Source: an uncultured Colwellia sp. (GTDB taxonomy: Bacteria; Pseudomonadota; Gammaproteobacteria; Enterobacterales; Alteromonadaceae). Taken from it: a DNA stretch of 64,000 nt. The position numbers and the translations under genes were made by a program. This document shows, one piece after another, positions 1 to 18,444 of the stretch. The stretch is from assembly GCA_913057925.1 (NCBI GenBank), contig CAJXPG010000002.1, positions 5,387 through 69,386 of the forward strand, in the 5' to 3' direction. Under the pieces are notes generated by a model, which saw only the letters and a list, made by a program, of their open reading frames with translations, did no database searches and was not told the DNA's origin. The stretch's first letter is position 1. Each line of letters begins with the position of its first letter.

Positions 1-623
1 GGTGAACACACACCTTTTTGTGCACTATAAAAGCTTGGTTTGTCATTGATAGGGTAGAAGGCAATACAACCATGAAGATCCATACTATGAAAATATGAAA
101 AAACTTCATCTCTAATTTGTTCATAAGTAAAGCAGTGGTTGAGTTTAGAGGTCAGTTGCATACAGCTGCCATATTTAGAAGCCTGAGCCATAGAGACATT
201 GATGACATTATTCTTTGATTTTATTTCATCTTCAAAATCATGAATCTTATCCTGATAAACAATTAATTTATCAAGTTTAGAATGCAACGCTAATAACGAG
301 AAGGGCTTTGCTAAAAAGTCATCTGCTCCACATTCAAGCCCTTTTAAAATAGCTTCTTCACTCGCCATGCCCGAATATAAAACAAATGATGTTGGGGCTT
401 CGGCTTTACCTTGCTGTAATTTAATCCAATCAGAGCCTTTATCACTACCAATATTTTCATCAACTAATGCAATATCAAAAGTAATATTCTCTTTTAGGAG
501 GTCTTCAGCCACAGTAATATTACTTGCGCATTTTACTTCAAAAACATCGCTTAAACTCTCAGCAAGTAGCTTTAAGTAATCTATGTCATCATCAATAATT
601 AAAAGATTGTGCTTTATCATCAT
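1..623 (-). CDS. Response regulator (REC domain plus uncharacterised C-terminal region), truncated by window start; not in ORF track
   Basis: Manual translation from ATG at 623 (AAGGA upstream): MMIKHNLLIIDDDIDYLKLL...DIALVDENI...GADDFLAKPF, open to base 1. Confidence 0.85.
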   Translation of the reverse strand, partial: MMIKHNLLIIDDDIDYLKLLAESLSDVFEVKCASNITVAEDLLKENITFDIALVDENIGSDKGSDWIKLQQGKAEAPTSFVLYSGMASEEAILKGLECGADDFLAKPFSLLALHSKLDKLIVYQDKIHDFEDEIKSKNNVINVSMAQASKYGSCMQLTSKLNHCFTYEQIRDEVFSYFHSMDLHGCIAFYPINDKPSFYSAQKGVCS

Positions 624-653: not shown

Positions 654-2399
654 TTAATCATGCCAAATATAACTAGCGGTCACAGATGTCCCATGCTCTA
701 GATACTCCAACGTATCGCAAAGTTGATTTACTAACTCAACCCCTCGACCGCTCAACTTAATTCCATCATTCTCGGCAATATTGTTTCTCTTCATAACATC
801 GACAATATCAAAGCCCTTGCCACTATCTTTTATATTAATGATCATTTTTCCACCATGAGATAATGGAAAGTACTCTAACGTTATCCTAACAAAGTTATCA
901 GGTGAGTTTATGGTGTTAACAGCTAAATTATCCAAACGCTTTGCACGCTCATTAAAATACTGACTAAAGCCTTCAGCAGAGTCTTTTAATGATGAATTTA
1001 ATTGTAAAACACCATGGTCTAACGCATTAACAAACAGCTCTGTTAATATAGTATATAAACTCTGCCAATGCTCACCGGCTCCTTCTATGTCATTAATTTG
1101 ATTCATAACTAACGGTATTGGATTAACCGTTTTGAGTAATTTTCCTGTCAGATGCAAGTGATAAGACCAAGTAGGTAAATAAGTTTGTTCATCATCTATA
1201 AGGCTTTCATTAAGAATAAGGTGTTCAGGTGAAGTCTTATTGTTAAACTCTATTTTCTGCCATCCACTACAAGGGACATCAACCAAAGATATATCATCCT
1301 CTTGCTCGCAGTGTTGACAAAAATCATCAAGACTATTTAAAACCTTATTGACCAACTGGTTCTGTTTTATCCCAGCTATTGCTGCATTTTCAAAGCGTGG
1401 GAATCCATAAAGCTCCCCTTCTGGGTTTCTTGCTTCAACGATACCATCAGTGATAAATACTAACCTGTCTCCTGAATATATCTGCACAACTTCAAGTTGG
1501 GTATCGGGTAATAATTGCGGCAATATACCTAAAGGTGGATGGCTTGAGCTAAATTGTTTCTTAATTTCCCCTTCGCCATTAAATAGGTAACCTTCAGGTA
1601 AACCTGCATTAAAGATATAAGCAGATCTTTCATGATCAGAAATACAGGCAAAACTTGCAGCAAAAAATAAATCACCAGGTAACAAGGTATGTAATTGTTT
1701 ATTTAATTGTGAAACAATCTCCAGGATTGAAAAACCTTTATTAGTCATTGCTCGAAAGGTTTCAGTGACCGGTATTGCACCAATAGAAGAACGAAGACCA
1801 TGACCGGTAAAGTCACCAAGTAATACGTGAATATTACCATTGGGACACAATGCACTTAATTGTATGTCACCACTAAAAATAGTCGCTGCTTTTTTGATAA
1901 CACCAATTTTATCTAAACCATAATTTCTCGCCTCTATAACCCCCGACATCATTTTTTCGGCAAGTTCAGCATCATTTTGTTGCTCTTGTTGGAGCCCTTT
2001 AACTTGCTCAACAAGATCACTGATTCGTTGTATTGCTTTTATTTTGGCCTTGAACACTTGAGGTGAAAACGGCCTGACAAGAATGCTATCACCGCCCGCT
2101 TCCACACTTTCAATAAAAGCTTGCTCATTGTCCATGCTGGTAATAAAAATTAGTGGCGCTAAATTACCAGCCCCAGATAATTGTTTTATCCGTCTAGTTG
2201 CTTCAAAGCCATCCATGATCGGCATATTAATGTCCATTAAGACGAGATCAGGTTGGTGTTCAATATACATTTGAACACCACTTGCTCCATCATTTGCTAC
2301 GACGACTTGGTAATTTTCTTCCTGAAGCAAAACAGATAGCAATTTACATTGCATTTTTGAGTCATCAACAATAAGCGCAAGTTTATGGCTGTTAGGCAT
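654..2399 (-). CDS. REC-PP2C(SpoIIE)-RsbW-like HATPase partner-switching regulator (HsbR/VCA1086-like)
   Basis: REC (LIVDD, LMDINMP, RPF), PP2C motifs (SGD, LGDFTGHG, FITDG, EDDIS), C-terminal ELFVNALDHG...DSGKGF...SGRG. Confidence 0.85.
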   Translation of the reverse strand: MPNSHKLALIVDDSKMQCKLLSVLLQEENYQVVVANDGASGVQMYIEHQPDLVLMDINMPIMDGFEATRRIKQLSGAGNLAPLIFITSMDNEQAFIESVEAGGDSILVRPFSPQVFKAKIKAIQRISDLVEQVKGLQQEQQNDAELAEKMMSGVIEARNYGLDKIGVIKKAATIFSGDIQLSALCPNGNIHVLLGDFTGHGLRSSIGAIPVTETFRAMTNKGFSILEIVSQLNKQLHTLLPGDLFFAASFACISDHERSAYIFNAGLPEGYLFNGEGEIKKQFSSSHPPLGILPQLLPDTQLEVVQIYSGDRLVFITDGIVEARNPEGELYGFPRFENAAIAGIKQNQLVNKVLNSLDDFCQHCEQEDDISLVDVPCSGWQKIEFNNKTSPEHLILNESLIDDEQTYLPTWSYHLHLTGKLLKTVNPIPLVMNQINDIEGAGEHWQSLYTILTELFVNALDHGVLQLNSSLKDSAEGFSQYFNERAKRLDNLAVNTINSPDNFVRITLEYFPLSHGGKMIINIKDSGKGFDIVDVMKRNNIAENDGIKLSGRGVELVNQLCDTLEYLEHGTSVTASYIWHD

Positions 2400-2447
2400 A
2401 ATACGTCCTAGAATTTTTTAACTACTCAAGGCACCTAAAGAGGTAAC

Positions 2448-2753
2448 CTACTCAATAGTCATTAACCGTTGAAATTGGGCAATTTCTAAGATTTTTCTCA
2501 CCGTAGCACTTGGCTTTGAAATAATGAGATCCCCTGAGTACAAATGTACATGATCTTTTAATAGTAAAATCATCCCCAATGCTGAGCTATCCATATATTC
2601 TGTTTTACTTAAGTCGAGAATATAGGTTAGTCCTTTTAATCTTTCATTATTATAAGCATCGCGAAACTGCTGATGTGAAGAGAAATCGAAGCGTTCATTA
2701 ATACTTATAACCATTTGTTTATTATCTGAAGATAGCCTGCTACTGACTGTCAT
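2448..2753 (-). CDS. STAS anti-sigma factor antagonist (HsbA-like)
   Basis: 101 aa; DLSKTEYMDSSALGMIL motif with phospho-acceptor Ser. Confidence 0.9.
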   Translation of the reverse strand: MTVSSRLSSDNKQMVISINERFDFSSHQQFRDAYNNERLKGLTYILDLSKTEYMDSSALGMILLLKDHVHLYSGDLIISKPSATVRKILEIAQFQRLMTIE

Positions 2754-2778
2754 AATCTCTTTCCTTATCGTTTAATCA

Positions 2779-3969
2779 TTAAAATAGTTCAACTTCACCT
2801 TCATCCATGCTGATTTGTTTAACGCTACGAATATCTTCTGCTTGTTGAGTTTGTTGATAAACTTGCTGACAAGTTTCTTTCAAATTTACTAATTGATCAT
2901 GCACGCCAATGCTAGGGTTTTTAACAAAAGTAGCTAAAACATCACTGATTTCATGAAGACTGGCGACATTCATCTGTAAAGATTCTAAGGATTGACGAGT
3001 TAAATCTTCAAACTGTAATGATCTGACTCCAAGACTGACTGCATCGGTAATTTTTGGTGCGATAATAGCGAGCTCTTCTACACTCTCGTTTGATTGATGA
3101 TTTACATGCTCAACATGTCCCATCATTACAGTCATTTTGTCTTTTGCTTCTAGAGTAGACGTCATATCAGCAGATGCCATTATTTCTACAGAATTTCTAA
3201 GTTTAGAGATAATTTCTTTTGCATTATTTATTTCCTTGCGAATATCTTCATTAAGCTCTGTAGACCCGACAGATAAGCTACGGACTTCATTTGCAACCAC
3301 AGCAAAACCTCTTCCAGCCTCACCCGCTCGCGCAGCTTCTATCGCAGCATTTAATGCTAGTAAATTCGTTTGACTGGCTAAGCCTTCCACTTGAGACAAT
3401 AATTTAAATATACTATCAAATTGTGTCACCATATCATCAGTATAAGCCATCGTTTCAAGACTTTGCTTACTCGTGTTGATAATGACACCAACAAATTCAT
3501 CTAATGTTTTATTTGAGTCAACGACAAAGCTTTCTAATGAAGTGCCACTTTCATCCTCCATACTACCGGATTGCGTAATTAGTAACTGGATCATTTGCTG
3601 TTGTTCATCACTTAAGCCTTGAAGGTATTTAAAACTGTCAGATATTCCTGTAACAGCATCAGAAACTAAGGTCTTTGTTCGCCCTAATTCTTTTTCTACA
3701 ATGTTAACTTCCTGGTGAATGAACTGTTGTAACTCAAAGATAACACTATGAATTAACTCATCATCAACAGTAGACATTTCTGTCAATTGCTCTACGCTTC
3801 TTTTGCCTGGTGATACTTTATTTAATGAATAAATGCTAAAAACTATACTTACTATAAGTCCTAACAGAGATATGATGAATATAGTGCTGTTTTCAAATAA
3901 CATGAAGTTAAGAAGTTGCACTAAGCACAAAGCACTAGCCAAAAAAAGAACATTGGTAACTCTGCTCAT
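2779..3969 (-). CDS. Methyl-accepting chemotaxis protein with N-terminal hydrophobic hairpin and no obvious sensor domain (VCA1088-like position)
   Basis: [31 protein letters not shown] signature; two adjacent hydrophobic segments at N-terminus. Confidence 0.9.
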
Positions 3970-5096
3970 AAAGCACCCTCAATATCACTTTGTTCCAAGA
4001 CATCTTGCATCTCAATCCTTTTTAAAGACGCGTATTGTAATATGGCCTTGCTAATTGACATCAAAGGCATTTGTGCTGTGTGAGCGGAAATTGCATGCGC
4101 TCTACCCGGCATTCCCCAGATAAGACTTGAGCTTTTATCTTGAATTATAGTTCGCGCACCAAGTTCTTTTAAACGCAACATTCCATGTGCACCATCTTGC
4201 CCCATGCCTGTTAGTAGAACAGCCTGAACGTTATCAGCGATATCATTTAAAGAATCAAACAAAACATCAACCGCAGGTTTATGACGGTTAACCTCTGGGC
4301 CATCACTTAACGTACAAAATAACGCACCATTTTTATGAACAACCTCTAAGTGCTTATCTCCAGGTGCAATATAAACATGACCTTCTTTAATCTTTTGACC
4401 ATGACTTGCCTCATGCACGGTAACTTGACAATTTTCATTTAAACGTTGCGCAAATCGATAGCTAAAAGTTTTAGGGATATGTTGGGTAATAACAATTGCT
4501 GGTGAATTACTAGGCAACGTCTCTAACAGTTTTTTTATCGCCTCTGTGCCACCGGTTGATGCACCAACTGCAACAAGATGATTGGAGCGTTTTATCCCAG
4601 TAAAGCTTAAAATGTTAGTTCTTTCAGTGGAAACTTTTTTTGTCGCAAGGGTATCAGACAGCTTAAAATTCTTTTGATCAACCGTAACTGCTTGCATTAC
4701 CTTTTCAATCAGGACCTCTTTAAAGCTTGACCTTGTTGCAATCAGCTCTTGGACCGTTGGTTTTGCGATAAAATCTAATGCGCCAAGCTCTAATGCTTGT
4801 AAAGTGATATCAGCGCCTTTGGTTGTTAATGTTGATAACATAATTACCGGCATAGGGCGCAGACGCATTAAGTTAGTAAGGAAAGTAATGCCGTCCATTT
4901 TTGGCATTTCAACATCTAAGGTTAAAACATCTGGATTCAGTTTTTTGATAAGCTCTCTTGCAACTAACGGGTCTTCTGCTTCACCTACCACTTCAATAGC
5001 ATCGCTATGACTTAATGCTTCTTTAATGATATTACGAATTACAGAAGAGTCATCAACAATCAGTACTTTGATTAAATCCATATTAATGCTCTCCAA
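3966..5096 (-). CDS. cheB: Chemotaxis methylesterase CheB (REC plus esterase)
   Basis: GASTGG, QHIP and LTGMGQDG catalytic motifs; N-terminal REC. Confidence 0.95.
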
Positions 5097-5107
5097 ATCT
5101 GAGGTTT

Positions 5108-5788
5108 TTAAAACAGTTCAACATCACCACTAACCTCTTTCTTGTATATTTTATTGCTATAATCACTTTCTCGTTTGATGATCGTATCATTGTGCAAGTT
5201 ATCTAACCGTTTGATAAAAGCGCGACCACTACCAGGTTCGAATATCACTTTTCTTGGGTAAATATCACCAATGTCACTACTTTCAATAATGATTTCTTCT
5301 TGCTCTAAATAAGCTAGAGCAAAATCAATATTTTTTTGTCCTACATCAGACATTTGGTTAAGCACCTTAGCACCACCAAAAAGCTTAGCTCTTAAATTAA
5401 CTTTCCTACCACCGCACCTTAAAATACAGTTAATAAGGTGTTCCATAGCAAAGTTACCATAGCGTGTTGCATCTGCAGTCTTCTCTCGGCTTCCCCAATT
5501 TACTTCATGTGCGTCTTTATTGGTGATCGGTAACATAAAATGGTTCATGCCACCGACATTACTTCTCTCATCCCAAATACATGCAGAAATACATGAGCCT
5601 AATGTTGTTGCAATAGCAACATTTTGTGTAGTCATATAAAATTCACCAGGTAATATTTTAGCAACCACCATATCCCTCTGTTTATCCCAATAGTGGTTAA
5701 CTTGCACAAACTCTGGCTGGCATTGGGTTAAATATTTTGATAATTCTGGGTGATTATTTCTTAACACAAAATTTCCTTTTGAAAGCAA
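5108..5788 (-). CDS. cheD: Chemoreceptor glutamine deamidase CheD
   Basis: ILPGEFY, TTLGSCISAC, GGMNHFMLP, KLFGGA motifs; TTG start uncertain. Confidence 0.93.
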   Translation of the reverse strand: MLSKGNFVLRNNHPELSKYLTQCQPEFVQVNHYWDKQRDMVVAKILPGEFYMTTQNVAIATTLGSCISACIWDERSNVGGMNHFMLPITNKDAHEVNWGSREKTADATRYGNFAMEHLINCILRCGGRKVNLRAKLFGGAKVLNQMSDVGQKNIDFALAYLEQEEIIIESSDIGDIYPRKVIFEPGSGRAFIKRLDNLHNDTIIKRESDYSNKIYKKEVSGDVELF

Positions 5789-5790
5789 AG

Positions 5791-6702
5791 CTAATAAGGC
5801 TTTCTAAAAATTGTTCTACCAACATTGCTAAAATACTGCTGATAATTCCCTAAATTTTCACTATGCCCTAAAAAGAGTAAACCTCCCGGGGTTAGCATTT
5901 CATAGTATCGAGCAAACAGCTCTTGTTGGGTTTTCTTATCGAAATAAATAATAACATTACGGCAAAAAATCACGTCAAATGGGCCTTTCATTGGCCATTC
6001 ATGAAGTAAATTCAATTGTTTAAAAGTTATCAGCTCCTTTAAATTATCATTAACCTTTACACTCTGACTGCTTTTGCCACAACCTTGAAAAAAGTAATCC
6101 TGTTTCACTTTTTGTGGTAGTTCTTCAATTCGCCCAATATCATAGATCCCAGCCTTACCTTTTGCTAAAACATCGCTATCTATATCTGTTGCTAATATTT
6201 TCATATCCCATTGAGATGATTCAGCTTTCATAGTATTCAATAAAGTAATGGCTATACTATATGGCTCTTCACCTGTTGAACTAGCCGAAGACCATATCCT
6301 TAAACGCTTCTTACCATTTGCTAAAACTTTTTTATTCTCAATAATCCTAGGCAACTCTTCTTTACTCAAGAAGTCAAAATGATGATTTTCACGAAAAAAG
6401 CTTGTTAAGTTTGTGGTTATGGCATTAATAAAGAAATCTTTTTCATGCTCGGGTTGATCCTTAAGTAACTGGCAATAAGCAGAAAATGATTTCAGCTTCC
6501 TTTCTCGAATGATGCGTGTTAAACGGCGGTATAACATTTCACGTTTACTGTCATTCAGTACGATACCTGTATTGTCATAAACAAACTGACAAATAAACTT
6601 AAAATCCTTTTCTGTGAGTCGCATCGCATTTTCCCTTTGTGCGTTACGGCTTTGATGACCTCGCATATCATTTGCACCTCCTTTTAGCTCAGTCATCAAC
6701 AC
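5791..6702 (-). CDS. cheR: Chemotaxis methyltransferase CheR
   Basis: TTNLTSFFRE, RIWSSASSTGEEPYSIA, FDVIFCRNVIIYF, GHSE. Confidence 0.96.
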   Translation of the reverse strand: MLMTELKGGANDMRGHQSRNAQRENAMRLTEKDFKFICQFVYDNTGIVLNDSKREMLYRRLTRIIRERKLKSFSAYCQLLKDQPEHEKDFFINAITTNLTSFFRENHHFDFLSKEELPRIIENKKVLANGKKRLRIWSSASSTGEEPYSIAITLLNTMKAESSQWDMKILATDIDSDVLAKGKAGIYDIGRIEELPQKVKQDYFFQGCGKSSQSVKVNDNLKELITFKQLNLLHEWPMKGPFDVIFCRNVIIYFDKKTQQELFARYYEMLTPGGLLFLGHSENLGNYQQYFSNVGRTIFRKPY

Positions 6703-6750: not shown

Positions 6751-9700
6751 TTAAAACTCTTCCCATTCTTGATCTACCAGCGTACTCGGACGTTTAGTGC
6801 CGCGAACAGGTTTAGGCGTAACCGCAGGGCTAAAGTTTGACGAATTTTTCGCGGGTGCTTGTCTTGGCGCCGAGCGATTAGGACGCTGTACAGCAACAGC
6901 TTGCTCAACATTTTCACCATTATTGAAAAAGGCAACTTGATCTAGCAATGACTGAGATTGTTCTTCCATCGACTTACTCGACGCAGCGGCTTCCTCAACC
7001 AAAGCAGCATTTTGTTGCGTCATTTCATCCATTTGACTTACGGCTGCACTCACCTCTCCTATTCCCGCAGATTGTTCTTTACCTGCACTGTCAATATCAC
7101 CAATCATCTTACTAACATCTTCAATGGCGGTAACTAAGTCGCTAAAGGTTTGCCCGGTTTCATCTACTAACTTAGTGCCTTGTCCAACCGCTTCAACACT
7201 GTCATTTATTAAACCTTTAATTTCTTTAGCAGCACCTGCTGATCGTTGAGCTAAATTTCTCACTTCTGCTGCAACAACGGCAAAGCCTCGACCTTGCTCG
7301 CCAGCTCGTGCTGCTTCAACCGCAGCATTGAGTGCAAGTAGATTAGTTTGGAAAGCAATTTCATCGATAACACTAATAATATCGGCAATTTTCTTGCTCG
7401 ATTTATTGATATCACTCATTGCGGTAATAGCATTCCTAACCACAGCACCACCATTACTGGCTTTATCCATAACCGAGTTAGATAATTTACTGGCTTCTGT
7501 GGTGTTTTCAGCGTTTTGTTGTACTGTGCTCGTTAACTCTTCCATAGCTGACGCTGTTTCTTCTAAGCTAGATGCTTGAGACTCGGTGCGATGACTTAGC
7601 TCATTGTTACCCGATGCTATTTCTTTTGCAGAATCGAAAACATTGGTTGAAGCATTACGAATTTCTTCAACCATGTTACTTAAATTATCAATAGAGCCAT
7701 TCATTGCATTCGCTAGTGCAAGGAATTCACCACCGTAATCATTTCTCATGCTTTGTGTTAAGTCACCATCGGCGAGCGCTTGGGCAATATTAATGGCATC
7801 ATTTATGGGTGCTACAATCGAGTCCATTAGGCTATTAATATTATTGCCTAATTCTTTCATAAAGCCTTGGTATTCTTCTGTTTCTATGCGGCTATCTAAC
7901 TTACCTGAAATGGCGTCGGTAATTAAATTATCTATTTGTGATTGAGCATCTCTTTCTTCAGTTAAATCAACCCATTGCACCGCCGTACCAACATGATTAC
8001 CCTCTTCGTCCCTCAGTGCTATGGCAATTAACTGAAATGTTAAGCCAACTACAGATATCTCTGTGGTGTAAGGAAGATTGTCAGGATTACCTAACAGATT
8101 CTGTTGATGTGCAGGGTTTTTATGGAAGGTATCAAAATTAGTCCCTACCATGGTATCGACACTAAACGAAGGTAACGCTGTGCGTAGTTTTGCCTCTCTA
8201 CGGCGTAACATGGTTTGTACTGCTGGGTTGGCATAAACTATATTACCTTGAGTATCAGCCATCATAAGATTGGTTGTCATTCCTTCTACCGCTGAAGTTA
8301 ATCGGCCTACTTCCACCGACTTCTCCCTTGCTGCGGTAACATCTTGCCATTCTAAGGCGTTACCAATATATCCACCGCTAGCATCCAAAATAGCGGTAAC
8401 ATTTAGTTCAAACGATAAATGCTTAATTTGGATATCGGTCTTATAAGGTAAGTTATTTGGGTCACTTAGTAACTTACGTTGATGGGCTGGGTTTTTATGG
8501 AAACTGTCAATGTTGGTGCCAATAATCACATCAGGGTCAGCTTTAAATCCTGGCCAATTCTCAGCAAAGGTGGCTTCATGCTCTTTCAATAAGGCCAGCG
8601 TCGAAGCATTGGCATAGGTAATATTAAAGTCTCTATCGATCATAATATTAGCGGTAGCTGATTGGTCAATAGCACCTTGTAGTTGAGCTGATTTGTTTTC
8701 TTGTGCACGCGCTTCAGTAACATCTTGCCACTCTAATGCGTTACCTATGTATTCGCCGTTAGCGTCTAAAATTGCGGTAACGTTGAGTTCAAACGATAAA
8801 TGTTTAATTTGGATATCGGTCTTATAAGGTAAATTATTTGGGTCATCGAGTAATTTACGTTGATGGGCTGGGTTTTTATGGAAGCTGTCAATGTTAGTAC
8901 CAATAATCACTTCAGGTTCGGCTTTAAAACCAGGCCAATTATCAGCAAATGTTGCTTCGTGTTCCTTCAGCAGTGCCAAAGTTGCAGCATTAGCATAAGT
9001 AATATTAAAATCTCTATCGATCATGATATTAGCTGTGCCAGATTGATCTATCGCTCCTTGTAGTTGAGCTGATTTGTTTTCTTGTGCTCGCACTTCAGTA
9101 ACATCTTGCCACTCTAGTGCATTCCCAATGTATTCGCCTTGAGAATCCAACGTAGCACTGACATTTAATTCAAAGGTTAAATGGGCAATTTGAATATCGG
9201 TTTTGTATGGCAGATTGTTTTGGTCGGCAAGTAACATGCGTTGATGTGCCGGGTTTTTATGAAAACTATCTATGTTAGATGACAGTAATGCTGCTTTGTC
9301 GGCTTTAAAGCCTGGCCATTTTTGTACAAAGGTCTCTTCATGTTGCTCTAACAATTTGAGCGTTGCATCGTTTGCATAAGTTACATTGAAATCTCTATCA
9401 ATCATCATAAATGCTGTCGATGATTGATCTAGTGCGCCTTGTAATTGTATTGCCAAATCATCCTGTTTCTTATTTTGAACCTTACTCTTATCCATGTTCT
9501 TTCCTTTTGAGGACTGGGATGGTGCGACATTATTTGCTGCATCAATCATTGTTGTTGATAAGGTTTGATAAACTGCTACCCAAGCTTTTTTAACAGGTGC
9601 TGTAAACTCTTTACCTAAGCCTTGTGCCAATGTTTTAAGTAACGCGGCACCAACTGTATCGTAATGCTCTGGCTTGGTACCATACTCTACATGCTTGGCG

Positions 9701-9933
9701 CCGAGCTTTTGAACCGCTGGAATTAACTTATCTGGGTTATCAAGTAATTTGACAGCTGTATCAAGCATAGCCATCAATTTTTTACCTTGTTCTGTAACAT
9801 CTTCAGGAAATAGGGCTTTTAGTGAAGGGTCCATTTCAAACAAGGTGGTATAAAATATGTCTGCTGCTTGAGGTGCAATTGGTAACACTTTTTCCCAGCT
9901 TTGTTGCACTAAACTTATCTGTTTTGGTGTCAT
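6751..9933 (-). CDS. aer2: Soluble Aer2-type chemoreceptor: globin + 4 PAS-heme + HAMP region + MCP signalling domain, C-terminal EWEEF pentapeptide
   Basis: N-terminal 3/3 globin ([19 protein letters not shown]); four PAS repeats with FHKNPAHQ and (E/Q)W-D motifs; MCP signature; no transmembrane segment; position between cheW and cheR. Confidence 0.85.
7960..9483 (-). repeat. Four tandem intragenic PAS repeats, 381-bp period (outer boundaries approximate)
   Basis: ATCTTGCCA(C/T)TCTA anchor recurs at 8341, 8722 and 9103; middle two units nearly identical in protein, fourth more divergent. Confidence 0.9.
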
Positions 9934-10024
9934 AAGTTAATTTCCTGTGTTGTTATTTTTGAACTGTTTGGTATTTTCTTTCTTGCTTTATATCGTTATA
10001 TTTAAATGAAACCTGCGCTGTTTG

Positions 10025-10579
10025 TTATGCAGTTGAAATGCCAGTTACAGAGTTCGTTTGCATATCTTGAGCTTTAATATCGATATCAAGGTTACCTTCA
10101 CTATTGCCCTCACTGTTATTGCTGATGCAATATAAATCGTCTTCATTAAGTAATGAATCGCTATCTAAAAGAATGATTAGTTTATCTTCTACCGATGCTA
10201 AACCTTTTAAAAAACAGCTATCTATATTATTACCAAAGGCAGGTGCTTGACGTATGGACTTTTCGGAAAACTTATAGACTTCTGAAACCGCATCTACCAC
10301 TATACCGACAACCATGGTGCGAGATTGAGATTGTTGGCGTAATATGATGGTTACTGTTTGCTCATCATAATCGAGCGCCGAGTGGCCAAAGCGCATCCGT
10401 AAGTCAATGATTGGAATGATCACTCCCCTGAGGTTTATGACACCTTTTATATAGCCTGGTTTATTAGGCAACTCGGTTACTGAGCTCCATACACGAATTT
10501 CTTGTACGCATAAAATATCTACGCCATATTCTTCACCTTGAAGTAAGAAAGTAAGATATTCTTGTTCTGTTTCAGCCAT
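10025..10579 (-). CDS. cheW: CheW coupling protein (second copy)
   Basis: YLTFLL, YGVDILCVQEIR, GVINLRGVIIPIIDLR, GIVVDAVSEV. Confidence 0.95.
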   Translation of the reverse strand: MAETEQEYLTFLLQGEEYGVDILCVQEIRVWSSVTELPNKPGYIKGVINLRGVIIPIIDLRMRFGHSALDYDEQTVTIILRQQSQSRTMVVGIVVDAVSEVYKFSEKSIRQAPAFGNNIDSCFLKGLASVEDKLIILLDSDSLLNEDDLYCISNNSEGNSEGNLDIDIKAQDMQTNSVTGISTA

Positions 10580-10635
10580 GTTAATTTCCTATTAACCATT
10601 ACTCTTGTTGGGTGTTACTCAAGATAATTTAATCA

Positions 10636-11169
10636 CTAACTATTCATTGGGTGCTGTTCAACTTGCTGTAAATGAGCAACATTAAGAATGGTGACAACTT
10701 TTTGTTCACTATTTATTAGACCATCTATAAATTGTTGACTTACACAACCGCCAAATGCTGGCGCAGGTTTAATATCAACACTTTCAACGTTCAAAACATC
10801 AGATACCGCATCGACAACGAAACCTATAGTGCGTGATTTATCATCATTCTGATAAGTTAAAACTATTACTACCGTTGTTTCTAGGTAGCTTGCTTCACCT
10901 ATTCCAAACTTTAATCGTAAGTCAACAATAGGAACTATCACACCACGCATATTAATTACACCTTTAATATAGCCAGGAGCATTAGGTATCTTAGTCGGTG
11001 TTTCCCAGCTTCTGATCTCTTCTACACATAAGATATCAACAGCATATTGTTCATCGGCAAGTAGGAATGTTAAATATTGATCGCCACTGGTTATAAAGTC
11101 TACACCTTCAATGGAGTGCTCACCTTCAACAGGAATATCTTGAGCCATTGCTTGAATATTCATATACAA
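10636..11169 (-). CDS. cheW: CheW coupling protein (first copy)
   Basis: YLTFLL, GVINMRGVIVPIVDLR, GFVVDAVSDV. Confidence 0.95.
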   Translation of the reverse strand: MYMNIQAMAQDIPVEGEHSIEGVDFITSGDQYLTFLLADEQYAVDILCVEEIRSWETPTKIPNAPGYIKGVINMRGVIVPIVDLRLKFGIGEASYLETTVVIVLTYQNDDKSRTIGFVVDAVSDVLNVESVDIKPAPAFGGCVSQQFIDGLINSEQKVVTILNVAHLQQVEQHPMNS

Positions 11170-13265
11170 ACCTCTGCTTTGACACTGTCTCCACCATTTT
11201 TAAATTTTTGAGCATACTGTGCTTTTTCAAGTGCCATACTTATCATTCCTGGAATATCTAAAATCATAGCAACAGAGCCATCGCCTAAAATCGTTGCCCC
11301 TGAAATCCCTGCAACCTGTTGATAATTATCTTTTAAGCTTTTAATGACTACTTGTTGCTGAGCAAGTAAATCATCTACCATCAAGCCAACCTTTTGCCCG
11401 TCAGCTTCAACCACAACAAGTAACGCGTTATCTATTTCAATGCATTCTGTCTCTAAATCAAACAATTGGTAGATAGGAAGTACCGGAACATTGTCGTCTC
11501 TCAATCGATACAGAACCATGTCGCCTGAAACTCGGTTTATTAATTTATTATCTATTTGAAGGGACTCTACGATAGCAATAAGCGGGATTATGTAAGTTTC
11601 ACTGCCAACTTTGACTAACTGACCATCTAGTATGGCAAGAGTTAATGGCAGGTTTACCTTAAAAGTACTTCCTTTACCCAAAGTAGATTCAACTTGGATT
11701 CTTCCACCAAGTGCTTGAATATTTCGTTTAACCACATCCATACCGACACCACGACCAGAGATATCGGTAATTTCTGCTGCGGTAGAGAAACCAGGTTCAA
11801 ATAACAAATCATAAACTTGGCTATCTGTTAAAGTTGCATTAGCGTCAATTAAACCTTTATCAACAGCTTTAGCTAGTACAGATTCACGATTAATACCTGC
11901 ACCATCATCATTTATTTCAATAACAATATTGCCACCTTGATGATATGCGTCTAGCGAAATGGTGCCCTTCTCTGGTTTCCCTTGTGCAACCCTTATATCA
12001 CTCGCTTCAATTCCATGATCCGCCGCATTACGAACTAAATGTACTAAGGGATCACCAATTTGCTCCATAACAGTTTTATCAAGCTCGGTTTGTTCTCCTT
12101 TGATAACTAGTTCCATTGCTTTGCCGGTTTTTACAGCTAAATCATGAACTAGTCGTGGAAAGCGACTAAAGGCAAAACTGATAGGTAGCATACGAATGCG
12201 CATCACACTTTCTTGTAGTTCTTTGGTATTTTGTAGTAACTGCTCTAACCCGCTATTAAGGCGCTCTACTTTTTCCATGACGAAGTCATTGCCTAACTCT
12301 GACAACATAGACTGAGTAATAACTAATTCACCCACTAAATTAATTAAGCTATCCACTTTATCTACGCCGACACGAATAGAGCCAACTTCAGTTTTCGCTT
12401 TAGTTTTGCTAACTGTTGCTTTTTCATCAGCACTTTTAGGATTAGCTGCTGCTATCTGACTTTCTTGAATTTGAGGCGTCGTTTCATCGATGGCAGGAGC
12501 TGTTGTATTTTCTTGTTGGAAGGTAGGCTCATTTTCAGTTTTTTCTTGTGGCAGCTTATTATCGATAGGAGTGAGTTCGAGTAAACACTCATCTTCAACC
12601 CACTCAAAAATTTCTTTAACCTCTTCTTCGTCAACTTCTCCAATCAACGTTAATTGCCAGCTTAAATAAAGCTCTTGTGCATCAATGTCCATTAAAGCAG
12701 GAAGTTCATTGGTATTAGCGTGAATGGTTAAGCTGCCTAACTCTGCTAAAGCACTGAATAAAAACAGCGGATCATTACCTGTTTTTGCCAGACTATGCTC
12801 CGGAACAAACTTGATATTAAAACCCGTAGCTGATTCTGAGCCTACTTTATCAACACTAACATTTTCATCAGAAGTGAGTTGTTCGTTACCTAATGTTTGC
12901 GCTAAACGGCTAGAGGTTTGAGCTACTTTTTCAGTATCATAATCCGATTCATCTCTAGCGGCTTCAATGAGCAGTCGCATACAGTCAACTGACTCAAGTA
13001 ATATTTCAGTATCAGCGTTGGTAACCTCTCTTCGACCATCTCTCATTTCATCTAGCAGGGTTTCGACTAAATGAGTAAAATCAGTAACACTGTCAAAACC
13101 AAAGGTTCCAGCCCCACCCTTGATTGAATGGGCCGCCCTAAAAATAGAGTGGATAGTTTCATTGTCGCCCGGCTGTAAATTTAATAGTCCGGACTCCATT
13201 AACTCAAGCCCTTCAAAACTTTCTTCTAAAAAGCTTGGAATAAATTGTGATAAATCAACACTCAT
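11160..13265 (-). CDS. cheA: Chemotaxis histidine kinase CheA
   Basis: Hpt FRAAHSIKGGAG, SIRVGVDKVD, HLVRNAADHGIE, SGRGVGMDVV, C-terminal CheW-like domain. Confidence 0.97.
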   Translation of the reverse strand: MSVDLSQFIPSFLEESFEGLELMESGLLNLQPGDNETIHSIFRAAHSIKGGAGTFGFDSVTDFTHLVETLLDEMRDGRREVTNADTEILLESVDCMRLLIEAARDESDYDTEKVAQTSSRLAQTLGNEQLTSDENVSVDKVGSESATGFNIKFVPEHSLAKTGNDPLFLFSALAELGSLTIHANTNELPALMDIDAQELYLSWQLTLIGEVDEEEVKEIFEWVEDECLLELTPIDNKLPQEKTENEPTFQQENTTAPAIDETTPQIQESQIAAANPKSADEKATVSKTKAKTEVGSIRVGVDKVDSLINLVGELVITQSMLSELGNDFVMEKVERLNSGLEQLLQNTKELQESVMRIRMLPISFAFSRFPRLVHDLAVKTGKAMELVIKGEQTELDKTVMEQIGDPLVHLVRNAADHGIEASDIRVAQGKPEKGTISLDAYHQGGNIVIEINDDGAGINRESVLAKAVDKGLIDANATLTDSQVYDLLFEPGFSTAAEITDISGRGVGMDVVKRNIQALGGRIQVESTLGKGSTFKVNLPLTLAILDGQLVKVGSETYIIPLIAIVESLQIDNKLINRVSGDMVLYRLRDDNVPVLPIYQLFDLETECIEIDNALLVVVEADGQKVGLMVDDLLAQQQVVIKSLKDNYQQVAGISGATILGDGSVAMILDIPGMISMALEKAQYAQKFKNGGDSVKAEVCI

Positions 13266-13388
13266 AACTGATCACCTACTTTTCCTTGTTAAAACCGGGG
13301 ACGTTATCACAACAAAGCACTTTTAGAATAAGTGCTTTAGACAAGTATATTGCTTATGTTTTCAGATAATTATATTAAGAACAGTAAA

Positions 13389-13751
13389 TTATTTTACTAC
13401 GCGTTTTATCGTTGCCAAGAGCTTCTCGGGATTAAACGGCTTAACCAACCAACCTGTAGCGCCAGCAGCCTTGCCTCGCATTTTCATATCGGTTGAACTC
13501 TCAGTCGTTAACATTAATATAGGAGTGAATTTAAAAGCAGCTAACTTTCTCAGCTCGGTACATAGGCTGATACCATCCATATTTGGCATGTTTACATCTG
13601 ATATCACTAAATCGAATCCATCCATTTGCGCTTTGGACAAACCTTCTCGACCATCCTTTGCCTCAACAGTCTGGTAACCTGCACTTTTTAGGGTAAAACT
13701 TACCATGTCCCTTATTGAGTTTGAGTCATCAACAACTAACACTTTAGTCAT
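13389..13751 (-). CDS. cheY: CheY-like single-domain response regulator
   Basis: 120 aa REC: VVDD, SDVNMP, MLTTE, VKPF; directly upstream of cheA. Confidence 0.92.
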   Translation of the reverse strand: MTKVLVVDDSNSIRDMVSFTLKSAGYQTVEAKDGREGLSKAQMDGFDLVISDVNMPNMDGISLCTELRKLAAFKFTPILMLTTESSTDMKMRGKAAGATGWLVKPFNPEKLLATIKRVVK

Positions 13752-13816
13752 ACTGGTTTCCTCGTCTTTAATTCACAGTCTTCGCGTAAAAGTTATTATT
13801 TTAATTTACTGAAGTA

Positions 13817-14092
13817 TCAATCCATTAAGTATTGCAATAAAATCACATCGCTAATGCCTAACTGCTGAATACTTTCCTTTAAAACGGTGGATTTTGATTG
13901 CCACTTAATATCTTTACCTTGGGCAATAATGTAGGTGACCACGGCTAAGATAAATTGCACACCAATGGTATCAATGCGAACTAAATCACCATCGTCGATA
14001 GTAATAATATCGTGGTCATCAATTAGTGGGAGAATTTGTGCTTGATATTCGTCAACTTGAGCAATAGTTAAATCGCTGGGGAACTTGATCAT
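13817..14092 (-). CDS. Small STAS-domain protein (VCA1097-like position)
   Basis: 91 aa; LTI..., IDTIGVQFI STAS-like motif; first gene of che cluster. Confidence 0.8.
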   Translation of the reverse strand: MIKFPSDLTIAQVDEYQAQILPLIDDHDIITIDDGDLVRIDTIGVQFILAVVTYIIAQGKDIKWQSKSTVLKESIQQLGISDVILLQYLMD

Positions 14093-14602: not shown

Positions 14603-16456
14603 TTATTGGGATGTTAATTGATGATATAACTGAGGAAGTCTCATCGGCAATTGATCTGGTCGCAATATTTGGGTAAAGCCATCATTACCAAACAAGTATG
14701 GCAAGTAATCTTGTGCATCAACATCTATTGTTATGCAAAAGGGTTTTATACCAAGACGTTTTGCCTCATTAATGGCCTGATGAGTGTCTTCAATGCCAAA
14801 GCGGCCTTCATAGTGATCAATATCGTTAGGCTTGCCATCAGTTAAGATAAGCAGAAGTTTATCCGCTGTTTTCTGTTCACTAATAACTTTAGTAGCTTGA
14901 CGAATTGCCGCCCCCATTCTGGTGTAAAAGCCAGGCGTTATCGCTTGAATTCTGCCTCTGACATGATCATTATAATTTTCATTGAAATTTTTCAGCATGG
15001 TGAAGCGAATATTGCTGCGCTTAACCGATGAAAAACCATACATAGCAAAGTTATCACCAACAGACTGCAACGCTTCGCCAAATAACAGCAAACTGTTTTG
15101 TACGACGTCAATAACGCGATTATCATTATCTATGTGAGAATCTGTCGACATTGACAGATCCGCTAATAGCAAACATGACAGATCGCGGTTATTACCTCGG
15201 TATGACTGAAATAAGCCTTTTTCTGCCGTCGCAGCAGTTTTACTTTCTATATGATAATCAAGCCAAGCATTGAGATCTAATTCTTCACCTTGCGGTTGAG
15301 CTTTAAGCCAATATCGAACACTTCGCAATTGTTCAAATTGCGCTTGGATCATTCTTGCAGTTTTTTGTAGCTTTACTGGCAATTTTGCCGGCACTGCATC
15401 ACGAGGTAACATCGGCTGCAACAAGCAGCGATCATCTTGTAATGTTTGGCTTTTATAATCCCACTCAGGCAGTTTGATACCTTCACCGAGTGGAATATCA
15501 TCTTCAGAAGCTGACGGTAAGTCCAAATCAATTTTTATCTGTCCGCTTTTTTGTTGCTCTTGTTGCTTGGTTAACGTGATCTTGTCTAGATCATCAATAG
15601 TGCTTTGATAATCTTCTTCATCCTCATCACTATCATCAGTGCCTCGGTCCATTTTGGAAAATTCACTCCATGAGAACAAACTTTCTAATCTAAATATCAT
15701 CATGCCGCTTCTGCCGTCGGGTGAATCGACCCGCTCTGCTTTTTTACGAGCAGAATTAGCTTTTTTAGTTATCTTCTTCTCATTGTCTTGTCCATTTTCT
15801 TCTAACAGTTTATCTTCATCAAATTCAGCGCCAAGCACATCGTCACTGCTTGCCGAAGGGTAAAGCCACAAATATACCGCTTTTGGGGCAAAATTTACTT
15901 TGGGAAATTCATTGACTGAGCCCGGTGTTAGAATTGCTTGCCTAATAGCGCGTTCCATTGAGCGCTCTGCCTGAGGCATTTTATCCATGGATGCCCTCAT
16001 CTCAACAAAAGCCTTTGCTAAGCGACGATATCGATTTTGTAATGCAGGAAATTTTTCCAAGACTTCAACCACTAGCGCTTGATTATCCTTTGCCCAATGG
16101 CGAAAGCTACCACTGTGGTGTGCAGCGAGTACTGCCAGCCAAATGTAAAGGTCGTAATTGAGGTTTGTTTCATTAAAAACTGCTAGAGACTCTGGTAATC
16201 GCAGGCTTTCTTCATCTTGCCAAGCAAGACTCACTAACTGATTGTCTCCTGAAACTTTTTGTAAAAAGCTTTTACGTGTAAGATATTCTCTGCCAGTTGC
16301 GGATTCGACACGCTTTACCGCATCGCCACCTAACGCTCTAAACACCATAGCTACAGATTTACTTACCTGATCAAAATTAACGCGAGCTTCATCAAATTCA
16401 GGATTTGCTTTGCGAGTTATATATTTGTGCCAAAGTCCACCAACCCACTCTTCCAT
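14603..16456 (-). CDS. norD: Nitric oxide reductase activation protein NorD (VWA domain)
   Basis: MEEWVG start, YPEWDY-like LPEWDY, MIDAS DLSMS, GFYTRMGAAIR, LTDGKPND. Confidence 0.92.
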   Translation of the reverse strand: MEEWVGGLWHKYITRKANPEFDEARVNFDQVSKSVAMVFRALGGDAVKRVESATGREYLTRKSFLQKVSGDNQLVSLAWQDEESLRLPESLAVFNETNLNYDLYIWLAVLAAHHSGSFRHWAKDNQALVVEVLEKFPALQNRYRRLAKAFVEMRASMDKMPQAERSMERAIRQAILTPGSVNEFPKVNFAPKAVYLWLYPSASSDDVLGAEFDEDKLLEENGQDNEKKITKKANSARKKAERVDSPDGRSGMMIFRLESLFSWSEFSKMDRGTDDSDEDEEDYQSTIDDLDKITLTKQQEQQKSGQIKIDLDLPSASEDDIPLGEGIKLPEWDYKSQTLQDDRCLLQPMLPRDAVPAKLPVKLQKTARMIQAQFEQLRSVRYWLKAQPQGEELDLNAWLDYHIESKTAATAEKGLFQSYRGNNRDLSCLLLADLSMSTDSHIDNDNRVIDVVQNSLLLFGEALQSVGDNFAMYGFSSVKRSNIRFTMLKNFNENYNDHVRGRIQAITPGFYTRMGAAIRQATKVISEQKTADKLLLILTDGKPNDIDHYEGRFGIEDTHQAINEAKRLGIKPFCITIDVDAQDYLPYLFGNDGFTQILRPDQLPMRLPQLYHQLTSQ

Positions 16457-16519
16457 AACAATATTACATTCGTCTAAATTAATAATGATATGATTGTATC
16501 AATAAAAATTAACCATGCT

Positions 16520-16533
16520 GTGATTTGGGTCAA
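16520..16533 (-). promoter_or_regulatory. FNR/DNR-type box upstream of norD
   Basis: Minus strand TTGAC-CCAA-ATCAC; TACAAT -10 at 16498-16493 gives class II (about -41.5) geometry. Confidence 0.6.
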
Positions 16534-16540
16534 CAGAAGT

Positions 16541-16969
16541 TTACTTTGGCTTAGCAAAATTCAATATTGCTTCACTGGCAAACCTTCTTTTACATTCATT
16601 GACAGACTTTTTAACGAGAACACGGCGAAATGACTCATCTAAATTCAACCATTTATTTTTCATTTCGGGATGTGTACCAAGCTCTTCAAAAGAATCTATA
16701 AGCAACTGCTTTCTAACATCAAAAAGCGCTTCAGGTATAAACATGTGATTGTGGGCAATGGGGGGCGCTTTTCCAATATATAGATTTTCACCGCCAAGCA
16801 CTTTTTGCATAAAGTCTACTTGTTGATCTTCGATATGCTGTTGAGGAATGTCTAAAAAATAAAGCTTTAACCATGGATGTTTATAGACTTTATCGTAAAA
16901 AACTTTGTTGATGGCAATAAGACTTTCACGACCGCCGATACGGTTAAACTCATCGAGTTTATTCATCAA
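16541..16969 (-). CDS. Group I (N-type) truncated hemoglobin
   Basis: IGG, FY (B9-B10), F (CD1), QQVDF (Gln E11), LGG...Y EF loop, His F8 in IAHNHM. Confidence 0.88.
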   Translation of the reverse strand: MMNKLDEFNRIGGRESLIAINKVFYDKVYKHPWLKLYFLDIPQQHIEDQQVDFMQKVLGGENLYIGKAPPIAHNHMFIPEALFDVRKQLLIDSFEELGTHPEMKNKWLNLDESFRRVLVKKSVNECKRRFASEAILNFAKPK

Positions 16970-17036
16970 TCACATTTACCCTAAGGTTACTTATCTTCTG
17001 TGTTAAATAAACTATAGAGTAAAATGTAGAAAGTTA

Positions 17037-17477
17037 TTAAAAAATAGGCAGTTTTTTTGCCATTGCTCGAGATAAATTGAACATGCCAATCAGAACAAAC
17101 CCTGCATGTAGCGTAACAAAGTAAATCAAACCGACCATAATCGATACTTGTTGTTGCTCCGATAAATAGATAACAGCAAGCGGTACAATAGCCAGCAATA
17201 CCCCCGCTAGTATCGACAACTGAACACTTCGAATTAGGTGAATCTTACCAATACCCAAATTTTTCAGTTTCACTTTATTTTCACCCTGTGGGGATTGGAT
17301 ACTTTGAGTACTATTTTCAGAACTGTTTTGAGTACTATTTTTTTGCTGATTAAGTTGACGTAAGTAATAAACTAATACCAAGAAAAATACTCCCGGTAGC
17401 AATAGCAAGTTGGCAAGGTAAAGCGATTGACAAATAATGGCAAACCTTCCACTTGCGCTAGGACTTCTATTAATCAT
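17037..17477 (-). CDS. Uncharacterised membrane protein (about 3 TM) within nor-accessory cluster
   Basis: LYLANLLLLPG N-terminal helix and two further hydrophobic helices; co-oriented between norF-like gene and trHb. Confidence 0.6.
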   Translation of the reverse strand: MINRSPSASGRFAIICQSLYLANLLLLPGVFFLVLVYYLRQLNQQKNSTQNSSENSTQSIQSPQGENKVKLKNLGIGKIHLIRSVQLSILAGVLLAIVPLAVIYLSEQQQVSIMVGLIYFVTLHAGFVLIGMFNLSRAMAKKLPIF

Positions 17478-17536
17478 TTGTATCTCCTTGTCTTTAGATT
17501 GCTCACTTTACTTAGTTACTTAATGCCTATTGCTTA

Positions 17537-17791
17537 TTAATTTAGATAAATCACACTAATAATTAACGGTAACATTACGATATAACTTAATAATAGCAAA
17601 CGCCAAAACCTTGGTGCTGACTTCAATTCCATAAACACATCAACAATTTGCTGTCCTTTGATTACAACAATAATTAATGCACAAATTATATAAGCACTTC
17701 TCTCACTGATAATGATTGGGAAATACATTGTGACAAGTGTTAACACAACCAGCACTAGCCAACTAGTTGTTGCTAAACGAAAAGCTAGCAT
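17537..17791 (-). CDS. Cytochrome c oxidase subunit IV-like small membrane protein (NorF/NirP-like)
   Basis: 84 aa, 3 hydrophobic segments, IKGQQIVDVFMELKSAP motif; follows norE. Confidence 0.75.
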   Translation of the reverse strand: MLAFRLATTSWLVLVVLTLVTMYFPIIISERSAYIICALIIVVIKGQQIVDVFMELKSAPRFWRLLLLSYIVMLPLIISVIYLN

Positions 17792-17846
17792 TATTTTGCC
17801 CTCCTAATACATTGAGATAAATGTCATCAACTTAAACAACATGAAT

Positions 17847-18431: not shown

Positions 18432-18444
18432 TAGCCGCTAAGCG

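Follow-up and report, generated by a model that had tools for sequence, protein, structure and literature searches.

The closest described relatives of the receptor analysed here are VvAer2 of Vibrio vulnificus and VcAer2 of Vibrio cholerae, a tri-PAS-haem and a dual PAS-haem protein, respectively. Both are soluble and contain tandem PAS-haem domains with an Eeta-His and an Ibeta-Trp, N-terminal modulators of the PAS_8 type, a distinct C-terminal signalling PAS, a di-HAMP unit, a kinase-control module and an EWEEF tail (PMC10107281). In VvAer2, O2 signalling reaches the di-HAMP from the C-terminal PAS under modulation by the penultimate PAS, and the first PAS can largely be dispensed with (PMC10107281). 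Aer2/McpB of Pseudomonas aeruginosa (PaAer2; 3vol, 4hi4) has three N-terminal HAMP domains and one PAS, with neither a globin nor a PAS array. An initial annotation of the present locus stated that characterised Aer2 proteins contain between one and three PAS domains and lack a globin, which agrees with PMC10107281 and with a 2026 review (PMC13401364). We have examined a 64,000-nucleotide stretch of DNA from an uncultured Colwellia sp. (contig CAJXPG010000002.1 of assembly GCA_913057925.1; hereafter the window), in which one open reading frame (ORF; 6751-9933, reverse strand) encodes a receptor that, unlike VvAer2 and VcAer2, carries a globin at its N-terminus, attached by a disordered tether, together with four PAS domains and a candidate internal start. 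Judged from its sequence, the protein is a soluble haem-PAS gas receptor of the Aer2 family, encoded in an F7-type chemosensory cluster of a Colwellia-like marine gammaproteobacterium. The globin-bearing four-PAS design is an uncharacterised variant of this known receptor.

The reading frame is intact over 1060 codons and contains no internal stop. A stop codon between globin and PAS1, which would have undone the initial annotation, is therefore absent. Pfam recognizes in the 1060-residue protein Globin (PF00042) at residues 27-129 (E = 6e-19), four PAS domains, HAMP_2 at 688-752, HAMP at 704-752 and MCPsignal, the domain of methyl-accepting chemotaxis proteins (MCPs), at 816-972 (E = 4e-54). 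The NCBIfam equivalog NF041847 (Vibrio-type 'aerotaxis transducer Aer2') gives 1393.7 bits, above its cut-off of 1200, its best stretch placing residues 321-1060 on model positions 70-804. Membership in the Aer2 family is further indicated by PAS domains with the haem His, Hbeta-Leu and Ibeta-Trp, by the soluble succession of last PAS, di-HAMP and kinase-control module, and by the position of the gene between cheW and cheR in an F7-type cluster. Because the highest Kyte-Doolittle value of any 19-residue segment is only 1.48, the receptor has no transmembrane segment. It contains no cysteine. Its C-terminal pentapeptide, a probable tether for CheR/CheB, is identical with that of VvAer2 (PMC10107281).

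The host genome (4.38 Mb, 93% complete) is a MAG-like assembly (MAG, metagenome-assembled genome) of 260 contigs, and we considered whether separate globin and aer2 genes had been joined by an assembly or sequencing error, or whether the four-PAS count came from mis-assembly of repeats. Short-read contigs break within the PAS repeats, and a metagenomic protein 98% identical to that of the window (P0002) has one PAS fewer. Against such an artefact, the frame is free of stops and frameshifts, and public seawater-metagenome contigs, which may share a sample with the window, cross the globin-linker-PAS1 junction without indels (9058-9911 and 9326-9996). The same fused ORF is found again in genomes of isolates and in complete genomes, the fusion being present in more than 100 clusters of homologs, and the 15% DNA divergence of PAS2 and PAS3 suffices for assembly. 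With indel-free spanning contigs and fusions in many clusters, an artefact at the junction is rejected, and we regard an error of either kind as very improbable. The exact number of PAS domains in this strain is mildly uncertain.

All four PAS domains retain the FHKNPAHQ motif with the haem His and the Ibeta-Trp, as initially annotated, and also the Hbeta-Leu and the DxT motif. Alignment against PaAer2 (3vol) and VcAer2 PAS2 (6ceq) puts these residues in register with His234, Leu264 and Trp283 of PaAer2, a protein which also shares the PAS-haem fold, the PAS-to-HAMP coupling and the Che2/F7 position between cheW and cheR. Sequence identity of PAS4 is 53% with VcAer2 PAS2 and 39.5% with the PAS of PaAer2, and the PAS4-HAMP segment matches 3vol (E = 2e-42), where the alignment runs on through the first HAMP, and 6ceq (E = 2e-33). 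PAS1-3 form a subtype apart from PAS4, being 69-91% identical among themselves and about 39% identical to PAS4. In a structural model described below, PAS1 superposes by Foldseek on 6ceq with a template modelling (TM) score of 0.91 and on 4hi4 with 0.84. PAS2 and PAS3, at 91% protein and 85% DNA identity over a 381-bp tandem unit, are by sequence a recent tandem duplication. By homology with VvAer2 and VcAer2 (PMC10107281), PAS4 would be the core and PAS1-3 would be modulators. Conservation of the MCP region amounts to 92% across the family.

Searching with residues 1-150 against full-length candidates gave 127 clusters at 90% identity, nearly all with the architecture Globin+PAS+MCPsignal; residue and PAS statistics were compiled on 120 of the 127. 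At least 114 clusters, mainly from Colwellia, Thalassotalea, Litorilituus and Psychrosphaera, combine the same globin with Aer2-type PAS domains. Named members from Colwellia, Litorilituus, Thalassotalea, Thalassomonas, Psychrosphaera and Brumicola are annotated merely as methyl-accepting chemotaxis or PAS-domain proteins. The rarity of the architecture that was implied at first was overstated, since the family is widespread, with 2-7 PAS units. With a PAS profile derived from the window protein, units were counted in 114 of the 120 clusters: one unit in 1, two in 26, three in 43, four in 28, five in 13 and six in 3. The final unit is of the PAS4 (core) type in 113 of these 114, all 263 preceding units are of the PAS2 (modulator) type, and essentially every unit retains His, Leu and Trp. 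Identities of 93-100% are frequent between neighbouring modulators, a sign of repeated recent duplication. The longest array seen, in a genome of the same family (L075 1365-5681, G026), follows the globin with seven Aer2-type PAS domains in 1438 residues, and the four domains of the window protein are mid-range for the family. P0002 lacks exactly one 127-residue unit, a PAS2/PAS3 hybrid when compared with positions 8317-9078 of the window, and this difference reflects either polymorphism in copy number among closely related strains or a collapse of repeats during assembly.

The combination has been listed before. A 2018 in silico study reported PAS+globin+MCP proteins in seven genomes, including Corallococcus (Cc_4972), Colwellia sp. 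MT41 and Glaciecola nitratireducens, and proposed PAS+Bac_globin+MCPsignal cytoplasmic receptors as dual oxygen sensors (PMC6194562). That paper names the truncated 2/2 Bac_globin family, and the window protein matches PF00042 only, a difference in family name that may or may not hold for its Colwellia and Glaciecola entries. The view that the architecture had escaped characterisation stands to this extent: the literature search, with thin coverage of subscription journals and so not a proof, found no experimental or descriptive study of a globin-Aer2 fusion, and the domain combination itself had been catalogued.

Among solved structures, the first-ranked match of residues 1-132 is the HGbRL globin domain of Methylacidiphilum infernorum (3wfw, E = 2e-26), in an alignment free of gaps. 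The structures ranked next are HGbI (3s1i) and 3ubc, followed by neuroglobins, flavohaemoglobins and Vitreoscilla haemoglobin (VHb). Because the HGbRL alignment is ungapped, the residue numbering of the HGbRL paper can be transferred directly. The distal pocket of HGbRL is formed by Phe27, Tyr28 (B10), Leu31, Phe42, Lys52 (E10), Leu53, Val56, Val94 and Leu98, with His81 on the proximal side and Arg80 and Tyr84 at the propionate (PMC4476040). The matching residues of the receptor globin are F27, Y28 (B10), L31, F42 (CD1), Q49 (E7), K52 (E10), L53 (E11), M56, K80, H81 (F8), Y84, V94 and L98. F27, Y28, F42 and Q49 are present in all 120 homolog clusters, H81 in 118, and L53 and K52 in 117, counts that are inflated by the recruitment of the set through globin similarity. 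Lys E10, which gives HGbRL its Lys-His hexacoordinate state (PMC4476040), is thus kept across the globin family too. An AlphaFold2 model of residues 1-290, built from an alignment of 36 orthologs, gave a globin with a predicted local distance difference test score (pLDDT) of 81-93, and by Foldseek this globin superposes on oxy-HGbI (3s1i) with a TM score of 0.95 and a root-mean-square deviation of 1.1 A. Because the pocket residues are near-invariant, the lining is nearly that of N-HGbRL and the model superposes on oxy-HGbI, the predicted globin almost certainly binds haem. The ungapped alignment and the model bear out the initial assignment of residues 1-135 to a 3/3 globin with Tyr B10, Gln E7, Leu E11 and His F8.

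The lineage of this globin was likewise read correctly as that of flavohaemoglobin, VHb and HGbI and not that of HemAT: PF00042 is the only globin family matched, and the nearest structures are HGbRL, HGbI, neuroglobin, flavohaemoglobin and VHb. Pfam gave no match of the receptor to Protoglobin (PF11563) or Bac_globin (PF01152) even at E<=1. Membership in the HemAT/sensor globins is rejected, there being no Protoglobin match and the nearest structures being M/F-family globins, and a truncated haemoglobin is ruled out for this receptor by the missing Bac_globin match. The 3/3 fold without a D helix, Tyr B10, Gln E7 and the proximal His F8 place it with the bacterial M/F single-domain globins (HGbI/VHb group). 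It lacks the FAD/NAD(P)H reductase module of a flavohaemoglobin (Hmp), and its sole globin-related NCBIfam match is to positions 6-145 of the flavohaemoprotein model NF009805, at 72 bits against a cut-off of 432. HemAT and the other globin-coupled sensors share with the window protein a soluble plan of N-terminal haem globin and C-terminal MCP domain. In HemAT, however, a Protoglobin-family globin is wired straight to the signalling helices, whereas here a globin of flavohaemoglobin lineage is separated from the output domain by a floppy linker (24 residues of low pLDDT) and four PAS-haem domains, with no continuous helical joint.

HGbI, HGbRL and the receptor globin fall in one bacterial subgroup, which lacks the D helix and has Tyr B10 and Gln E7, and in HGbRL an M/F-lineage globin is likewise fused to a putative signalling domain (PMC4476040). 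The partner there is a Roadblock/LC7 domain; here it is a chemoreceptor, and the modelled fold is compact as in HGbI and not site-swapped. HGbRL has a site-swapped fold in which the E and F helices are fused (PMC4476040). The receptor globin retains Pro67, Pro72 and Gly78 at the E-F corner, residues which are conserved in the homologs, and its modelled helices E (46-62) and F (67-83) are separate. With a TM score of only 0.49 for 3wfw vs. 0.95 for 3s1i, the model and the conserved corner leave an HGbRL-like site-swapped dimer fold unsupported.

The linker between globin and PAS1 is 20-41 residues long among 99 homologs and is poorly conserved. In the model, pLDDT is below 50 for residues 137-160 and the predicted TM score of the whole is 0.48, which indicates no fixed arrangement of globin and PAS. 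This linker contains AAGGA, a 6-nucleotide spacer and an in-frame ATG (Met147), from which a globin-less Aer2 of 914 residues could be translated. We compared 33 orthologous loci from Colwellia, Litorilituus, Thalassotalea, Psychrosphaera, further Alteromonadaceae and Pseudoalteromonadaceae, and Oceanicoccus. A linker Met occurs 10-19 residues ahead of the PAS1 N-cap at all 33, and in 29 of the 33 a Shine-Dalgarno (SD)-like core (AAGGA, GAGG, GGAGG or AAGGAGG) lies 3-12 nucleotides upstream of this Met. Such a core precedes only 7% of the remaining 859 in-frame Met codons of these genes. By chance about 5% of linkers would carry both Met and SD, vs. the 29 of 33 observed; this is no formal probability because the loci are related by descent, although the linker sequences are unalignable between genera. 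Since an in-frame ATG with an SD-like motif is retained in an otherwise variable linker, the gene probably also makes a globin-less receptor from Met147. We infer from these sequences that the motif may be the old aer2 start site, retained because it is still in use. One metatranscriptome contig of a close relative spans 9593-9936 and is too short to bear on the isoforms.

The globin clade occurs in 50 of 201 sampled genomes of the Genome Taxonomy Database family Alteromonadaceae, fused in about 30 and as a free globin of 147-176 residues (47-59% identity) in about 20; in the genus of the window it occurs in 2 of 6 sampled genomes. Globin-receptor fusions are also present in Spongiibacteraceae and in one Bacteriovorax MAG, and the same clade is N-terminal on MCPs with other PAS types in six clusters and in L029 and L032. 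An unfused ancestor with a globin gene beside aer2 was not found among these genomes, and four stand-alone globins of the clade in same-family genomes adjoin no MCP. The globin tree leaves 35 of 65 forks open, deep nodes among them, on the question of one vs. several fusion events. The window's globin lies on a short branch inside a well-supported Colwellia clade. Tandem di-globins of about 290-340 residues, made up of globins of the same clade joined by Ala/Pro/Glu-rich or short linkers, are present in MAGs of Bacteroidota (Aquimarina, Cytophagales) and Alphaproteobacteria (L035, L038, L039, L040, L062).

From these comparisons we propose the following explanation, which we hold to be slightly better than even as a whole: a PAS4-driven Aer2 with modulator PAS1-3, a tethered signalling globin, an internal start and possibly an RpoS-type output. 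By homology, O2 would bind the haem of the core-type PAS4, the Hbeta-Leu would swing out and the Ibeta-Trp would hydrogen-bond the ligand; the change would then travel via the DxT motif and the di-HAMP to the kinase-control module and set CheA activity. PAS1-3 would be modulator haem domains, derived from recent tandem duplication, that tune PAS4. The globin should be unable to push on the PAS stack as the PAS units push on one another, and most likely sits at the distal tip of the receptor dimer as an accessory haem module on a tether. A globin that is tethered and not wired could act in three ways: by ligand-dependent docking or dimerisation, as a local guard reactive with NO/O2, or as a module that is being lost in some lineages. 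The facts that bear on its role are the disordered 20-41-residue linker, the genome's own Hmp, the candidate internal start, and the loss or decay of the globin in some orthologs. Of the three modes we modestly favour docking or dimerisation signalling, because the nearest relative of known structure is a putative sensor in which a large movement is linked to the ligand and Lys E10 is conserved, and because the clade recurs on several MCP types. The ligand or redox state of the globin, possibly including a Lys52-His81 hexacoordinate state as in HGbRL, would bias signalling through reversible docking or dimerisation. Translation from Met147 would add bare subunits, giving arrays with a set ratio of globin-bearing to globin-less receptors.

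Several observations weigh against this explanation, in addition to the inflated globin conservation noted above. A linker that is disordered and varies in length conducts a signal poorly, the model contains no confident contact between globin and PAS, and the most N-terminal module of VvAer2 is largely dispensable (PMC10107281). Instead of a used start, the SD and ATG in the linker could mark a site of translational pausing or the scar of the fusion, in slow decay. Close Aer2-core orthologs exist without the globin (L080, L081), and in L077, L078 and L081 an N-terminal membrane-anchored sensor region, or a transmembrane segment with HAMP, followed by a single core PAS, replaces globin and PAS array. 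L076, L079 and L083 keep the start MTPKQI/MTPRQI and have a decayed globin that has lost Tyr B10 (to Phe) and/or His F8, on branches of 2.3-4.0 substitutions per site. Since orthologs lose, replace or decay it, the globin is not essential to the receptor core. The two-PAS ortholog L080 (1532-3544, on the same contig as L033) begins MKTPQ...KRSNMDKKTT...LQGALDQS; its 5' region and first codons (MKTPQ) resemble the start of the globin gene and the following residues (KRSNMDKK) resemble the linker, which suggests in-frame loss of the globin. The globin might accordingly be a passenger of an old fusion, useful at most for folding, dimerisation or array spacing, with the Met147-start product as the functional receptor. 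The globin-less and decayed orthologs, the conserved internal SD and ATG, and the largely dispensable distal modules of VvAer2 (PMC10107281) all fit a dispensable or structural appendage. In the clade of the window, however, the globin evolves slowly (terminal branch 0.05; mean identity 76% vs. 67% for PAS1), and its haem-pocket residues are kept in 117-120 of 120 clusters from several genera, which is unexpected for a passenger. We judge the appendage improbable.

A second alternative is that the globin does not signal and serves as a chemical guard or buffer, which would consume or sequester NO by NO-dioxygenase chemistry (oxy-ferrous, Tyr-B10/Gln-E7) or hold O2 by the array, so that the PAS haems would be spared NO locking or oxidation or fast O2 fluctuations would be filtered out. 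The receptor globin shares its Tyr B10/Gln E7/Leu E11 pocket with flavohaemoglobin, VHb and HGbI, the last of which has a very high O2 affinity and autoxidizes slowly (PMC4476040); a flexible tether suits a module that works by local concentration, and PAS1 of VvAer2 is readily oxidised in vitro (PMC10107281). In Colwellia and Litorilituus, moreover, the chemotaxis cluster adjoins genes for NorQ-, NorE- and NorD-like proteins and a truncated haemoglobin. This neighbourhood is absent from Thalassotalea, Psychrosphaera and the other fused loci, and because of this restriction the nor-accessory and truncated-haemoglobin genes are rejected as a general partner of the receptor. Neither norB nor norC was found among the ORFs scanned at 14603-19227. 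A guard without a reductase domain would require a partner for turnover, and the only other PF00042 globin in the genome is a canonical, full-length NO-inducible flavohaemoprotein (Hmp, 539.5 bits) encoded elsewhere. Steady-state O2 cannot be altered by a buffer, and the presence of the same globin clade on MCPs of several kinds is more suggestive of an input module. A guard function appears unlikely, if less so than the passive appendage, and the tethered signalling globin is retained as the preferred explanation.

The features of the receptor gene and of its surroundings are collected in Table 1. The order STAS-CheY-CheA-CheW-CheW-receptor-CheR-CheD-CheB-short MCP-STAS-response regulator/PP2C/HATPase_c_2 is kept at nearly all orthologous loci. 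The reading frames of cheB and the short MCP overlap by 4 nucleotides (3966-3969) and those of cheA and cheW by 10 (11160-11169), consistent with translational coupling inside one operon. No second Aer2 was found in this 93% complete genome.

Table 1. Positions of the receptor domains and neighbouring genes in the window.
Feature	Position	Strand	Basis
Whole ORF: globin-linker-PAS x4-di-HAMP-MCP receptor	6751..9933	-	ORF, Pfam, NCBIfam
Globin domain, residues 1-135 (HGbI-like compact 3/3 fold)	9529..9933	-	Pfam, PDB sequence matches, AlphaFold2, Foldseek
Low-complexity Lys/Ser/Gln-rich linker, residues 136-159	9457..9528	-	AlphaFold2 pLDDT, homolog comparison
AAGGA, 6-nucleotide spacer, in-frame ATG (Met147): candidate translation start of 914-residue globin-less Aer2	9493..9506	-	Sequence, ortholog comparison
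PAS1 (160-285), modulator type; His225, Trp275	9079..9456	-	Motif alignment, AlphaFold2/Foldseek
PAS2 (286-412), modulator type; His352, Trp402	8698..9078	-	Motif alignment
PAS3 (413-539), modulator type; His479, Trp529	8317..8697	-	Motif alignment
PAS4 (540-666), core type, likely signalling PAS; His604, Leu629, Trp654, DLT motif	7936..8316	-	Identity to VcAer2/PaAer2
Di-HAMP region (667-760)	7654..7935	-	Pfam HAMP_2/HAMP; 3vol alignment
MCP kinase-control (signalling) module (761-1010)	6904..7653	-	Pfam MCPsignal, E = 4e-54
C-terminal pentapeptide EWEEF	6754..6768	-	Sequence
Upstream operon genes STAS, CheY, CheA, CheW, CheW	10025..14092	-	Pfam
Downstream CheR, CheD, CheB, short soluble MCP (McpA-like), STAS (CrsA-like), response regulator-PP2C-HATPase_c_2 (CrsR-like)	654..6702	-	Pfam
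STAS and response regulator-PP2C-HATPase_c_2 genes closing the cluster	654-2753	-	Pfam
Further receiver-domain ORF, running off the window end	3-623	-	Pfam
NorD-like (VWA, 617 residues), truncated haemoglobin (Bac_globin, 142 residues), 146-residue ORF, NorE-like (COX3 family), NorQ-like (AAA_5+CbbQ_C)	14603-19227	-	Directly upstream of the che cluster

The Che1 (F7) cluster of Shewanella oneidensis has the same gene content and order (CheY, CheA, CheW, Aer2, CheR, CheD, CheB, short MCP, STAS, response regulator-PP2C-anti-sigma-kinase; PMC9855816), although its Aer2so, unlike the window receptor, has no globin. In that species Aer2so assembles into units with CheA1/CheW1, and RpoS availability is under the control of the CrsR/CrsA pair; a link of the Che1 system to RpoS control is only proposed even in Shewanella (PMC9855816). 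From its gene content, the output of the present pathway may be a CrsR/CrsA-type RpoS partner switch, instead of or alongside swimming. Going further, one may combine four statements: that the internal start is selected and gives a mixed F7 array of globin-bearing and globin-less receptors, that flavohaemoglobin-lineage globins are a second independent origin of globin-coupled sensing, that PAS array length (2-7) is often reset by unequal recombination, and that the output is an RpoS partner switch rather than swimming. We offer this combination tentatively and consider it doubtful that all four hold together.

The design is common in cold-marine Colwellia-like bacteria, and a special function of its globin is our conjecture. 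Aer2 receptors are the model for PAS-haem gas sensing and for modulation by tandem PAS domains, and the versions studied so far have one to three PAS. The family described here provides a natural series of 2 to 7 haem-PAS domains with one fixed core, topped by a tethered domain of a second haem chemistry. Such a series allows one to ask how added haem domains affect sensitivity, cooperativity and ligand discrimination, and it permits a test of a flavohaemoglobin-type globin as a signalling input. The conserved internal start would offer a simple and testable example of how isoforms are dosed within a bacterial receptor array. Cold- and deep-sea Colwellia and their relatives, the hosts of this design, inhabit steep gradients of O2 and NO, and the finding may therefore bear on how these bacteria sense their redox niche.

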